Positions 2,090 through 6,958 of a stretch of 21,572 nt of DNA are shown in pieces (position 1 is the stretch's first letter; the number at the start of each line of letters is the position of its first letter). The position numbers and the translations under genes were made by a program. The notes beneath the pieces are model-generated. The model was not told the origin of the DNA. It searched no databases and saw only the letters and a list, made by a program, of their open reading frames with translations. This DNA comes from a virus (taxonomy: Duplodnaviria; Heunggongvirae; Uroviricota; Caudoviricetes): the IMG/VR virus record IMGVR_UViG_3300045988_085028, positions 1 to 21,572 of that record; one strand, 5' to 3'.

Positions 2090-4084
2090 TTATTCAGCCT
2101 TAGCAAAAGTGGTCATAGTTGTTCCACTGAAAGTGAATGACCTGTCTGTAAGAGTAACATCCTGAATAGCAAAGTAATCGCCAACACCAGCGCCATTTAC
2201 ATAAAACTCGAATATCTCAGATGTATTTTCCGGAATAATATTATTAGCAATATAACACGTAGATAAAGAACCATTTGTTGATGGTAAAGTTCCAAATAGC
2301 GTTGCATCCGATGCAGCATATATCGAACTGCTTAAATAAATATTTATATCAACATTACTCTCATAAGTAACAATTAAGTACACCCGGTCGTTAACCTTCC
2401 ACCCTCTGTCTTTTATCTTAGTATTAAGTGATAGCTTGTTAGAACTAGGGTTCGTTACGGTATTAATGGTTATTTTTGCTCCTATTGAGTTGTATCTGCT
2501 TCTGGTTACTGTATTACCAGTATTGTTCATTGTATAAAGGATTGCCCTGCTTTCTGCAAACGTCCTCATATTGATCTTGCCTAAACAATCTCCTTCCATA
2601 ACTTGTGGGCCAGACACAGTTGCACCAATATAACAATCAGTAAATACAGCATGAGCCCTGTTGTCAGTGCTTGATGCAAGTAATGAAAGTTTAAAGTTGC
2701 CCTGATCTGCAATCCAGCAACTATCAACCTTAACTACAGCATCATTGTCAAGAACAACAAACCTTCCTCCCTCATTGTAATATCCTACAAAAGCATTTAC
2801 ACCGCTTATTTTTACTACTCCATCTGGAACCGTAAAGATATCGCCTTGTATCGCTTCGCCATAGTACCCGCCAACAATATTGGTCACTCGGGTATTTAAG
2901 TACATGCCATGCCCAATGCCGAACTCAAGGTCACATCCAATTAAGCTTAAACCTTCAATAGGGGAAGTACCAGAAGCATAAAAGGCATATTCACCGACCT
3001 TATTTGATGCAAATCCACAGTTATTGAACGTTACGCGGTTGTTAGCCCCAGCAAGGTGAACTCCGCGATTTGGCGCAGGAACAAAAGAACAGCAATCATA
3101 GGTATTAAGCCAGTCGTTTATAGTATAGAAGTTCGCCACCGCGCCATTGATGAAACGACAATTATGGGTTCTTCCTAGGTGAACATATTGAATTCGGCAA
3201 GGATAGTTGGCGATGTTGTTCCCATCAACTGTAACGTGAGAGATAGATGTGCTACGTCTTATAGAGTCAGTTTCGTAGTACATGTTGACAACTGCCTCTC
3301 CAGTGAACCCACTCCCCGCAATAATGAATGACTTCTCAACGCCATCCCCGAATAGGTCAACAGTGCCTATTGTTAAATCAACTGGTGACTTAACATAGTA
3401 AGTTCCTGCAGGGACAAACAGCCTCTTTCCTGCCGATAAAGCAACTGCTGCAGCAGCATTAAAGCTAGCTGAGTTATCTGCCGCTGGATCACCAGTAATG
3501 GGGAAAAATTGAGCAACAGAAATATAATCTGCTACCGTCACTTCGTACCATGGCAAAGCAGGAGATGACGGAAGAGTGCCACTACCACCGGTGTAGATTT
3601 TATTATTATACCACCACCAGTTATCAACATTAGATAACGCCCCCTCCTGCCATACACCGCCTAACGAGAAATCAAGACCGTAAGAAGTAGCTATCTGACT
3701 TAATGATAATGTTGCCCCTCTGTCAGAAGCTAATTCTTGCCTTAATTGGTCAGGGTCATACTTCAGGACATTAGGAAAATAGAACTGCTGCGCACCGTAC
3801 GCATCATAAACAGCCATAGAATGGCCTTGCACAGTTACGAATTTGGCAATCTGTCCGTTATATACAGGATAACCAGCAGCGTTAATGATGATTGGTTGCG
3901 AAACAGGAACGTGAGAACCGTCTTCGTTCTCTACATAAACCGGAATCTGGTTTTCAGTATTTACCGGGTCAGTGTCAATTTTACCGATATAAATTTTGCC
4001 ATTAGCTACGGCTTTAAAAGAACGCGCCATAGTGAAGAGTTGCGAAGGCATGCTAACTACAACATTGGCTGTAATGTCTGTCAT
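2090..4084 (-). CDS. Tailspike protein: P22 gp9-type N-terminal head-binding domain fused to a divergent beta-helix receptor-binding/depolymerase domain (664 aa)
   Basis: The N-terminal ~110 aa ([42 protein letters not shown]...VLKYDPDQ) match the conserved P22/Sf6 tailspike head-binding domain from memory. The remainder is not P22- or Sf6-like, is AT-richer, and has asparagine/glycine-ladder character typical of right-handed beta-helix depolymerases. A GGAG lies about 9 nt upstream of the ATG at 4082-4084. Confidence 0.9.
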
Positions 4085-4166: not shown

Positions 4167-4354
4167 GTTGCGTTGGCTATCTGTCAGTAGTTATGTACTG
4201 AAGGAGGTAATTCTTTATTCTTAAGTCTCATCCATGCAGAAAGATTCGTTGGTCCGTCTGGCTCATTGATATCAACATCTCGTGTGTGGTTTATTAAAAC
4301 GTCTCTCGCCATCCCGATAACATACGAAAACTCATGACCGTAGTCGTAGCATCT

Positions 4355-4416
4355 GCCGGAATAGTTAGATTGTATTTGTTTTAATGCCGGAATAGTTAGA
4401 TTGTATTTGTTTTAAT
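4355..4416. repeat. Perfect tandem direct duplication of a 31-bp unit (gccggaatagttagattgtatttgttttaat x2, followed by a partial gccgga)
   Basis: Units at 4355-4385 and 4386-4416 are identical. The unit is 31 bp (not a multiple of 3) and lies at the 3' end of the ant reading frame. Confidence 0.9.
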
Positions 4417-5093
4417 GCCGGATACAGTTCGCGGAATAATGCCTGTGATCGGTTGGCATAATCCCATAACCATACAAGGCTGTTTGCTTCTTTTGCAGAA
4501 AGCTCGTTGGTTTTCTTCTCTTGTTTGCCAATGAACTCACCTTCAAGCACTACCCTGTGGATGTACTCTACGGCCAGCGGGATTTGTTCAATTGAAAGTT
4601 CATCAATGCTGTCAATACCAAAACGCTGATGAACCATATTGTATGCATCGTCATAACGAAGTCCTTTCTTTCCTACCAGCATGTTTACTGCATCGCGTAG
4701 CGGTGTTCTTTCCTCAACAGTGGTTTTCTTTCCTTTTACATACTCGCCATGTTTGCGAATTGAAGGCAGAACTTCTGCTGTTACCCACTTGCGGAATTTG
4801 TGCGGGACTGAACCTTTATTGACTGCATCGCGGCAGCGCAGAACCAATGTATACATACCTGATTCGCTCACAATGCTTAGATTCTGCTCACCACCAAGGG
4901 TGTAACTTAAAGTTACTCCCTTTTCATCGTCATCAAGTGCAGTAAGCGCCTTGCGTGAGTTAGTCAGGGTTAAAGCATCACAAACATCTTTTGCTACAAA
5001 CCACGGCTCACCGCACTTGTTGATGACGCGGATTTCACTGTCGCCGAATTTGAAGATGGTGAAATCGTTTTGTGCCTTTGCTATACTTTTCAT
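4365..5093 (-). CDS. ant: Antirepressor Ant (BRO-N/KilA-type), C-terminally truncated by the 31-bp duplication (242 aa as encoded)
   Basis: Sits downstream of arc on the same strand, as in P22 immI. N-terminal region is BRO/antirepressor-like. AGGAA lies about 9 nt upstream of the ATG at 5091-5093. The last 7 codons (GIKTNTI-stop) are read from the second repeat copy in a shifted frame. Confidence 0.8.
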
Positions 5094-5152
5094 GTCAATA
5101 TTTCCTAATCCGATTTGTTGATGCCGAAGCCCTGACTGTTACAGCAGTTGGG
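5083..5152 (+). ncRNA. sar: Candidate sar-like antisense RNA (about 68-70 nt) complementary to the ant ribosome-binding site and start codon
   Basis: Putative promoter inside the ant 5' end: -35 TTGAAG (5049-5054), 16-bp spacer, -10 TATACT (5071-5076). Putative 3' end at hairpin GAAGCCC...GGGCTTC (5116-5147) followed by AACTTTA. The implied length matches the 68-69 nt P22 sar RNA, and the position (arc-ant intercistronic region, antisense) matches too. Confidence 0.45.
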
Positions 5153-5161
5153 GCTTCAACT

Positions 5162-5323
5162 TTACGCACCAATGCGCCCTTCCTTCTTAAAGCTTTCCAT
5201 TACTCTCTGATAAATCTCAGAGTTAACAGACCGACCATTCTCTTCCGCCACCTTGCGTATCAAATCCAATACTTCTTTAGGCCACCGCAAATTGAACTGC
5301 GGCATCTTGCTCATTCCTTTCAT
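5162..5323 (-). CDS. arc: Arc repressor (53 aa, ribbon-helix-helix)
   Basis: MKGMSKMPQFNLRWPKEVLDLIRKVAEENGRSVNSEIYQRVMESFKKEGRIGA is near-identical to P22 Arc from memory. GAGGTG lies 3 nt upstream of the ATG at 5321-5323. The ORF-track entry 5162..5533 is an upstream in-frame extension with no support. Confidence 0.9.
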   Translation of the reverse strand: MKGMSKMPQFNLRWPKEVLDLIRKVAEENGRSVNSEIYQRVMESFKKEGRIGA

Positions 5324-5338
5324 ATTCACCTCACAATA

Positions 5339-5386
5339 TAGGTCCACGGTGGACCTATTGAGAATATAGTAGACTGCTTCTATCAT
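5339..5386. promoter_or_regulatory. Divergent immI control region carrying the Mnt operator (palindrome TAGGTCCACGGTGGACCTA, 5339-5357) and the Arc operator (ATAGTAGACTGCTTCTATCAT, 5366-5386), overlapping the Pant/Pmnt promoters
   Basis: The 19-bp perfect palindrome matches the P22 Omnt sequence. The adjacent 21-bp site is the P22 Oarc sequence with one or two substitutions. Both lie in the 90-bp gap between the divergent arc and mnt starts. Confidence 0.75.
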
Positions 5387-5413
5387 GTCAATACACTGAC
5401 TTGGAGTAATGGC

Positions 5414-5668
5414 ATGGCTAGAGATGATCCGCACTTTAACTTCCGCATGCCTTTGGAAGTGAGAGAAAAATTGAAATTCAGAGCAGAGGCGAATGGGAGA
5501 TCCATGAACTCCGAGCTGTTGCAAATCGTCCAAGATGCTCTATCGAGACCATCTCCTGTAAAAGGTAATCGCAATGAAGCTGAACGATTAGCCGAGATGC
5601 AGGCTGAACAGTTCAAGTCTGTGGTATTTGAGACACTTAAAAACATGTATGGCAAGGATGCAAAATGA
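5414..5668 (+). CDS. mnt: Mnt maintenance repressor (84 aa)
   Basis: MARDDPHFNFRMPLEVREKLKFRAEANGRSMNSELLQIVQDAL... matches P22 Mnt from memory. GGAG lies 8 nt upstream of the ATG. Its stop overlaps the next start (ATGA). Confidence 0.9.
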   Translation: MARDDPHFNFRMPLEVREKLKFRAEANGRSMNSELLQIVQDALSRPSPVKGNRNEAERLAEMQAEQFKSVVFETLKNMYGKDAK

Positions 5669-6246
5669 TCGATTACAACCCAGCAAAAAAAGAAATCATC
5701 GCAGCTAAAAAGTGCCTAGAGCAGATGAAATCATCTACAAACCATGATGATTTTGAAATGCACTGGCGAGAATGTCTTGGGCATATAGAAAAGTCTTTCA
5801 GTAAGTTGCTCTGTGCAACAAAGCCGGTTAGTGGAAAATTTAGCAGCCACTTCAACCAAAAGTTCATGCTTAGAAAAACAGACAAAACACTTGCTTACCT
5901 TCACCAGGCAAGGAATGCTGATCATCATTCCACTATGGAAATCTCAAAACTTGAACCTCCTTATACTACTCTTGGGGCATTTCCGGGAGCAAGAAGTCAT
6001 TATATTAAAGAGTTAATCATTGATTCAACAGGGGAAATAGCAAAATACGAAGGCGACCCTATGATAGTTGAGTTTCATCCAGCAACAACTATGCCTATAA
6101 CCGTAAGAAACCAAGGCAAAGATTATCCACCTCCAACAGAACATCTTGGCGAAAAGCTTGTTGATATACATCCATCTGTTCTTGCCTATCTCGGTATACA
6201 ATTTTATGAAAAATGGATAGATGAGTCGTGTGCAACGTTTAGATAG
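5665..6246 (+). CDS. Hypothetical soluble protein (193 aa), translationally coupled to mnt; function unknown
   Basis: ATG at 5665-5667 overlaps the mnt stop (TGA 5666-5668). Uninterrupted ORF in an AT-rich segment. No TM segments. I do not recognise the family. Confidence 0.6.
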   Translation: MIDYNPAKKEIIAAKKCLEQMKSSTNHDDFEMHWRECLGHIEKSFSKLLCATKPVSGKFSSHFNQKFMLRKTDKTLAYLHQARNADHHSTMEISKLEPPYTTLGAFPGARSHYIKELIIDSTGEIAKYEGDPMIVEFHPATTMPITVRNQGKDYPPPTEHLGEKLVDIHPSVLAYLGIQFYEKWIDESCATFR

Positions 6247-6463
6247 TTATTTTTGATAATTTCAAGTATTTCCTCTTGACTTTGATTTACCCAAACGTGA
6301 TCACACTCATGAAACCAGATTATGCTTCCTGTTTCGCCTTGTGCAATATAGGTGATCATGTTTTCATTAACAATTATTACTGAGTTATCATGTGCGCAAT
6401 TTAGTTTTATCAATTCGCATATCCTATCGTGACAAAGTAACTAGAAAAACTAAAGAGGTTGGT

Positions 6464-6958
6464 GTGTCTGATTCTATGAGTTACGCTGTGCTAGTTGCCG
6501 CAACTCTATTTATGGGGATAGGGTTGCAGATTGCGTGGTTCTTTTTTTCTAGTTTTATTAAACGCAAAAGAATTGAATCAAGGATATCTGAGATTTCTAT
6601 TGCTATAGGGAAAAATGCTGAAAATCCAGAGAATGAGGCCTGCGCACTGAATTACCTTAAAGAAAAGTTTTCCCCTGAAAAATTTGAAAATAGAATTACT
6701 GATGCTCTTGGATTGGTAATATCAGTAATTCATACGCCACTAAGTTTGCTGATAACAGTGTGGTACTTCGCCATGATCGCCGGAAGAATATTTGGTTTAA
6801 TGAATATAGAGCCTGTAGTTCTTTGGGTTCCAATGATACTGCAACTGTTGTTAAGCGTTGCTATCTTTATTTTTTCTGTTTTTATAAAAATTGTCTTTGG
6901 AAGATACCCCGGAGAAGCTAAGGGATTTAATAAAGAATTCATAAAAACTATAAAATAA
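6464..6958 (+). CDS. Predicted inner-membrane protein (about 4 TM helices) at the position of P22 sieA; candidate superinfection-exclusion protein
   Basis: Hydrophobic segments [47 protein letters not shown] and [24 protein letters not shown]. The ORF track starts at GTG 6392 with no RBS. GTG 6464 has AAAGAGG 6 nt upstream; ATG 6476 is the alternative. Stop at 6956-6958. Lies between mnt and gp16 like P22 sieA, but sequence similarity to SieA is not established. Confidence 0.55.

Follow-up and report, generated by a model that had tools for sequence, protein, structure and literature searches.

Does the antirepressor gene ant of an Escherichia coli P22-like prophage carry, opposite its 5' end, a gene for a sar-type antisense RNA? 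In phage P22, the promoter Psar drives sar RNA, which blocks translation of Ant by pairing with the arc-ant mRNA at the ribosome-binding region of ant and so helps to keep the antirepressor from inactivating the prophage repressor (PMC2629481, PMC7968456). The primary studies of P22 sar and Psar (Liao et al., 1987; Wu et al., 1987; Schaefer and McClure, 1997) are cited here through these two papers, and our statements about P22 sar rest on secondary papers and on curated GenBank features. The DNA analysed here, which we call the window, is a stretch of 21,572 nucleotides (IMG/VR record IMGVR_UViG_3300045988_085028). An original prediction, made from the letters of the sequence, had proposed that an antisense RNA of the sar type is transcribed within it from a promoter of its own inside the 5' end of ant.

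A P22-type immI region between the tailspike and ejection genes

The window covers the late region of a P22-like prophage with an E. coli host. The tailspike gene occupies 2090-4084 on the - strand, and the ejection, head, and terminase genes lie farther right; between the tailspike gene and the ejection genes sits a P22-type immI "ant moron" consisting of ant, arc, and mnt. The antirepressor gene ant, the target of the putative sar, runs from 5093 to 4365 on the - strand (Pfam Bro-N and a partial P22_AR_C; PHROGs anti-repressor Ant), with its start codon at 5093-5091 and a Shine-Dalgarno sequence, AGGA, at 5106-5103. On the same strand, arc (5162-5323) encodes a 53-residue Arc repressor (Pfam Arc, E = 8e-31) and is positioned as arc is in P22, while mnt, encoding the Mnt repressor, is on the + strand at 5414-5668 (Pfam Arc and Repressor_Mnt). 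A promoter scan placed two overlapping, divergent promoters between arc and mnt (5358-5391): Pant (TTGACA-17-TATATT, 5391-5363, - strand), the promoter of the arc-ant mRNA, and Pmnt (TTGAGA-17-TATCAT, 5358-5386, + strand). The same arrangement is curated in P22. By Pfam and promoter scan, the window therefore holds the gene set and the divergent promoter pair of a P22-type immI region; an intact antirepressor gene, which also belongs to such a region, is missing from it. In megablast searches, P22 and its relatives matched from about position 5078 rightwards, and the segment 5078-5420 is ~92% identical to P22 immI. The closest phages are the Escherichia phages EC.P3, Kapi1, and PhiR12.

Two open reading frames follow mnt on the + strand. 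The first, of 193 codons (5665-6246), has a start that overlaps the mnt stop codon (ATGA) and sits where P22 has orf59a; its sole match was to phrog_23516, a family of unknown function, over the full length (E = 4e-119), and a Pfam search returned no match for it. The second (6392-6958) is a SieA-like superinfection-exclusion gene (phrog_7745, E = 3e-107). Its listed GTG start puts 24 residues before the profile match, and the true start is probably downstream.

The strand opposite the ant leader encodes a member of the sar family

The Rfam model of sar (RF00262), whose gathering score is 43, matched the + strand at 5095-5161 with 65.6 bits (E = 8.2e-12). The match spans model positions 1-68 of 68, and thus the full length of the family, and RF00262 was the only Rfam family to match the window. 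A custom covariance model, R1, scored the same RNA at 88.5 bits. In addition, the region aligns without gaps to the features "sar promoter", "sar antisense RNA", and "sar terminator" of P22 (BK000583), and it also aligns to the sar annotated in phage epsilon34. Together, the Rfam match, the custom model, and the alignments to curated features define a sar RNA of 68-70 nt at 5094-5163 (+). Alignment to the P22 annotation sets its 5' end at G5094, adjacent to the ant start codon, and its 3' end falls at 5161, 5162, or 5163, depending on whether Rfam, the epsilon34 annotation (68 nt), or the P22 annotation (70 nt) is followed. The published length of P22 sar is 68-69 nt.

The RNA so defined is the complement of the entire arc-ant spacer, including the ant Shine-Dalgarno sequence. 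It leaves the ant start codon itself uncovered, and its 3' end is abutted or overlapped by the arc stop codon. P22 sar has the same design: it too is the complement of the arc-ant spacer, starts beside the ant start codon, and is 68-70 nt long. The antisense placement over the ant ribosome-binding site that characterises sar is therefore present in the window. Likewise, the sar of epsilon34, which was annotated by its similarity to P22 (EU570103; PMC2629481), belongs to an "ant moron" at the same site, between the tailspike and ejection-protein genes. From these comparisons we conclude with high confidence that an E. coli P22-like prophage carries here, within its P22-type immI region, the sar RNA gene at 5094-5163 (+).

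The central idea of the original prediction was thus borne out by the Rfam score, by the alignment to P22 and epsilon34, and by the arc, mnt, and Ant context. The + strand transcript of ~68 nt that it foresaw agrees with the predicted length, and the likeness to P22 sar in size and placement extends to a base-for-base alignment with the curated features. It had also described the RNA as antisense to both the ribosome-binding site and the start codon of ant; the first holds, as the RNA covers the Shine-Dalgarno sequence at 5106-5103, and the second does not, since the RNA only abuts the codon at 5091-5093.

The RNA is predicted to fold into two hairpins

The minimum free energy (MFE) fold of 5094-5163 is two hairpins, with a free energy of -29.8 kcal/mol (z = -5.96), and none of 200 shuffled sequences folded as well. 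The architecture is that of P22 sar, two stem-loops with an anti-Shine-Dalgarno sequence in loop I, and it joins a 3' terminator to a length of ~68-70 nt. Stem-loop I, the predicted target-recognition hairpin (5094-5122, stem 5094-5100 with 5116-5122), displays the anti-Shine-Dalgarno motif UCCU at 5103-5106 in its loop. Stem-loop II, the sar terminator hairpin (5126-5157), is a G+C-rich stem of 14 bp with arms at 5126-5139 and 5144-5157 and the loop UACA, and it is followed by AACUUU (5158-5163). It aligns to the feature annotated as the sar terminator in P22.

A generic terminator scan missed the sar terminator, which has only three T's after the stem. The tail of the P22 sar terminator is identical, with the same three U's, and the T run that follows the hairpin is longer than P22's in several relatives, on the + strand only. 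Because stem-loop II is homologous to a curated P22 feature, and because relatives carry longer T runs, we accepted it as a terminator.

A putative Psar lies within the first codons of ant

Upstream of G5094, the putative Psar consists of a -35 element, GTGAAA, at 5059-5064 (+), within ant codons 10-12, and an extended -10 element, TGcTATACT, at 5079-5087 (+), with TATACT itself at 5082-5087. The -35 element aligns with the curated P22 sar promoter and matches the consensus at 4 of 6 positions; the extended -10 is identical to that of P22. P22 Psar has the same layout, GTGnnn, a spacer of 17 bp, and TGcTATACT inside ant codons 3-12. The promoter scan found GTGAAA-17-TATACT independently, with its upstream TG two bases 5' of the -10. 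The window thus has, in sequence terms, a candidate promoter for sar in the first ant codons, directed opposite to Pant. Such matches are nevertheless common by chance: the scan found 7 promoter-like matches in the region, compared with 7.8 +/- 2.2 in shuffled sequences, and consensus matching was therefore left out as evidence for Psar. The evidence for Psar is its homology and its conservation.

This assignment changes the anatomy first proposed, in which TTGAAG and TATACT, separated by 16 bp, would start a transcript at about 5083 that ends at a hairpin at 5116-5147. Both hexamers are present on the + strand, and TATACT does lie in the first ant codons. TTGAAG, however, is at 5050-5055, which leaves a spacer of 26 bp to TATACT at 5082-5087, incompatible with sigma-70; it was rejected as the -35 in favour of GTGAAA, which aligns with P22 Psar. 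TTGAAG is also unconserved in P22-type relatives, whereas the GTG at the 17-bp position is conserved. A start at 5083 would fall within the -10 element itself, and alignment to P22 moves the start to ~5094. The G+C-rich hairpin is real but was misplaced, its arms being those given above for stem-loop II, and the interval once assigned to the whole feature, 5049-5152, stops 5 nt short of the end of the 3' arm and leaves out the tail. We therefore give that exact anatomy practically no chance of being right. All of its downstream coordinates fall short by 10-11 nt, as if a single block of ten bases had been miscounted.

The -10 element is also the reverse complement of coding sequence: TGCTATACT corresponds to ant codons 3-5 (Ser-Ile-Ala). 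The window Ant and P22 Ant both begin Met-x-Ser-Ile-Ala, and the rest of their N-terminal domains is not homologous. The -10 is kept across the mosaic junction at which similarity to P22 stops (~5078). The occurrence of Met-x-Ser-Ile-Ala on unrelated N-terminal domains is best read as selection at the DNA level for the putative Psar. The junction itself, at window position 5078, lies within ant codons 1-6, so that P22 similarity ends inside Psar.

Promoter and hairpins are conserved in relatives of the window copy

We compared the window with 14 further copies, drawn from Escherichia, Salmonella, Edwardsiella, and Klebsiella phages and from two E. coli prophages. The aligned set of 14 sequences comprises 13 further loci and the window; the copy from E. 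coli O157:H7 was scored in addition. The Rfam model exceeded its gathering score in 10 of the 13 loci. It missed Edno5 and scored GF-2 and a Klebsiella phage below gathering, and all three were recovered by the custom covariance model, which gave 64-90 bits on all 14 aligned sequences and 86.6 bits on the O157:H7 copy. Every aligned sequence (14/14) keeps the 17-bp spacer, the TG-extended TAnnnT, a CAT followed by the start, and the terminator hairpin, and TTGCTAnnnT varies little or not at all. Loss of the promoter or the hairpin in relatives that retain arc and ant had been named in advance as evidence that would speak against sar; we looked for it in the 14 further copies, and none had lost them. 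The 5' hairpin appears in the sequence's own MFE fold in 13 of 14 cases and is shorter in GF-2.

Covariation supports both helices. Standard pairs fill 93.1% of the pair cells when the sequences are aligned to the model, compared with 34-51% when the 3' partners are slid, and seven pairs show changes on both sides, 4 of the 6 in helix 1 and 3 of the 14 in helix 2; the helix 1 count comes from an alignment fitted to the model, which biases it in favour of the modelled structure. With an independently built MAFFT alignment as input, RNAalifold confirmed helix 2, with 3 compensatory pairs and 99.5% of cells paired, and it recovered helix 2 only. Helix 1 was missed there because the 5' stems of the P22 type and the window type are one nucleotide out of register. 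We handled this register problem with the covariance-model alignment, and the single-sequence folds agree with it independently in 13 of 14.

The hairpins could in principle belong to the other strand. Every antisense hairpin has a sense-strand counterpart, and the -10 overlaps conserved Ser-Ile-Ala codons, so that the hairpins might serve the - strand arc-ant mRNA, in its processing, stability, or attenuation, while the promoter-like sequence is a by-product of Ant codons and this variant makes no antisense RNA. The strands, however, do not behave alike. In all 14 homologues the + strand has the more stable fold, by 10.3 kcal/mol on average, because each sar contains 3-6 G.U pairs, which become C.A mismatches on the - strand. 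The consistent advantage of the + strand therefore indicates that the hairpins were selected in the sar orientation and not as structure of the ant mRNA. The + strand restriction of the T runs after the hairpin also argues against an mRNA role, as does the retention of the Met-x-Ser-Ile-Ala codons at the head of an Ant N-terminal domain that otherwise lacks homology, which fits promoter selection at the DNA level. Finally, the P22 homologue is known from experiment to be an RNA, having been detected by small-RNA sequencing (PMC13397905). A role confined to the mRNA is accordingly very improbable. Covariation, strand-specific G.U pairs, and promoter-constrained codons together make up clean comparative evidence that selection on the sar strand acts on both hairpins and on the promoter.

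The window variant is widespread in E. coli

Copies in PhiR12_1, Kapi1, EC.P3, E. coli C, E. coli BA92, and E. coli O157:H7 are 96-100% identical to the window over promoter and RNA, and all of them have the same variant 5' hairpin. The E. coli C copy is 100% identical over 5050-5165, and in the BA92 prophage Psar and sar (5030-5170) are identical to the window. Using 5050-5165 as the query, with coverage of at least 80%, we found window-type sar in 428 of 5,426 complete E. coli genomes. The sar of the window belongs to a known RNA family, as a diverged but ordinary E. coli-type copy. The RNA is unannotated in every record inspected for PhiR12_1, Kapi1, EC.P3, the prophages, and O157:H7, and the papers on Kapi1, which carries the same variant, do not mention sar; a look through them for expression of the variant found no data.

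Several phage records draw the ant coding sequence through sar. In the Kapi1 record (MT813197, 384-1328 of the fetched locus), ant is drawn from 66 nt upstream of the conserved start, across sar and into arc. The ant coding sequences of Edno5, GF-2, and SPN3UB run through part of the sar region, and those of GF-2 and SPN3UB overlap the next upstream gene. The ant starts in these four records are probably mis-called, and they hide sar.

The setting of the module also varies. In the prophage of E. coli O157:H7 FRIK2455 (666-2321 of the fetched locus), mnt, arc, sar, and ant lie between genes for a minor tail protein L and a C40 peptidase, among lambda-type tail genes, and not beside a P22 tailspike gene as in the window. 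The arc annotated there is just 111 bp, with a gap of ~300 bp to ant.

A tandem duplication truncates ant but leaves sar intact

Near the 3' end of ant, TRF detected a perfect tandem duplication of a 31-bp unit (4354-4422, 2.2 copies). DNA alignment shows that BA92 and Kapi1 have one copy of this unit, after which its first 7 bases (TGCCGGA) recur. The duplication shifts the reading frame, and Ant ends at 242 residues in the window. In relatives the gene is intact: BA92 and Kapi1 encode 292 residues when read from the homologous start, and the annotated coding sequence in O157:H7 is 879 bp. With the frameshift, the conserved C-terminal region loses its last 56 residues, and P22_AR_C is cut at profile position 45 of 73. 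No match spanning the duplication junction was found in the 5,426 complete E. coli genomes.

This truncation, with its loss of 56 conserved C-terminal residues, is what one would expect if the sar/ant module were no longer under selection here and sar were a decaying, non-functional relic. The state of sar itself points the other way. Its identity to BA92 extends over Psar and sar of a prophage whose 292-residue Ant is intact, its identity to E. coli C is complete, and nothing in sar or Psar is degraded. The repeat is also perfect, suggesting a recent duplication, and it is private to the window in the collection searched. We thus regard decay of the module as very improbable. Given that prophages whose ant is intact share the very same Psar and sar, the duplication appears to be either a lesion of recent origin, private to the window, or an artefact of assembly, and not a sign of decay in the module. 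As a lesion, it could be an inactivating or a reversible slippage mutation. As the sequence stands, the cis target of sar in this window is probably non-functional.

A conserved terminator half and a variable recognition half

The window and P22 copies differ unevenly along their length. Their terminator halves are identical at 37 of 38 positions, whereas the 5' 32 nt, which form hairpin I and recognise the ant leader, are identical at 13 of 32 (41%), with the stem kept by compensatory changes. The -35 is GTGTTA in P22 and GTGAAA in the window, and the 60 nt upstream of it are 25% identical to P22. The target proteins also differ: over its first ~120 residues the window Ant shows no clear similarity to P22 Ant, its N-terminal domain being Bro-N, and its C-terminal half is P22-like. 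In sequence, epsilon34 sar is of the P22 type from end to end; the alternative 5' hairpin is a feature of the window copy. The hosts are different too, E. coli for the window and Salmonella for P22. Because the 5' half is only 41% identical, the pairing kinetics of P22 sar should not be assumed for the window sar.

Discussion

The features described above suggest how sar would act in this prophage. Psar, a sigma-70 promoter embedded in the first 12 ant codons, would fire away from ant and towards arc. The transcript would begin beside the ant start codon and stop at the terminator hairpin at the end of arc. Loop I would display the anti-Shine-Dalgarno sequence, and sar would pair with the arc-ant mRNA made from Pant; the pairing would cover the ant ribosome-binding site, block translation of Ant, and so limit synthesis of an antirepressor that, if unlimited, would inactivate the prophage repressor. 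Since every sequence feature that the P22 mechanism needs is present and conserved, the window sar most probably works in the same manner, and we infer that this copy is expressed and active. With ant frameshifted, its regulatory output here may be moot, or may be exerted in trans only.

Comparable logic is found in other systems. IS10 RNA-OUT is a cis-antisense RNA that blocks a ribosome-binding site and, like sar, is short, structured, and constitutive, with a loop that contacts the target leader. The c4 RNA of immI in phages P1 and P7 exerts antisense control over an antirepressor, as sar does. Unlike sar, the c4 RNA of P1 arises by processing of the same transcript, has its targets at upstream sites, and is not a convergent cis-antisense RNA. 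Neither RNA-OUT nor c4 is known to have any sequence or structural relation to sar.

For the most part, these results add little beyond annotation. sar was among the earliest antisense regulators to be characterised, and a curated Rfam family detects the window copy directly. The useful outcomes are the corrected coordinates and promoter assignment, the finding that the variant is widespread in E. coli, including lambdoid prophages of O157:H7, and the recognition that some phage records draw ant through sar.

One aspect alone is mildly new: the recognition hairpin has diverged as a module, and repression by sar could be type-specific as a result. sar may be built from a near-invariant terminator half and a 5' recognition hairpin that occurs in mutually unalignable types, such as the P22 type, the window/Kapi1/O157 type, and the CUS-3 type, each tracking the type of the ant leader and of the Ant N-terminal domain. 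Repression in trans by an RNA of this kind would be confined to phages that share its type, and the types would then amount to immI specificity groups. We put this forward tentatively, as a possibility that is rather less likely than its opposite. If it is true, the promoter fixes the first residues of Ant, Met-x-Ser-Ile-Ala, across non-homologous N-terminal domains, and the specificity groups would apply to P22-like and lambdoid prophages that share a cell or superinfect it. The prophage described here, in which sar is intact although ant is dead, could then still shut off ant in an incoming phage of its own type.
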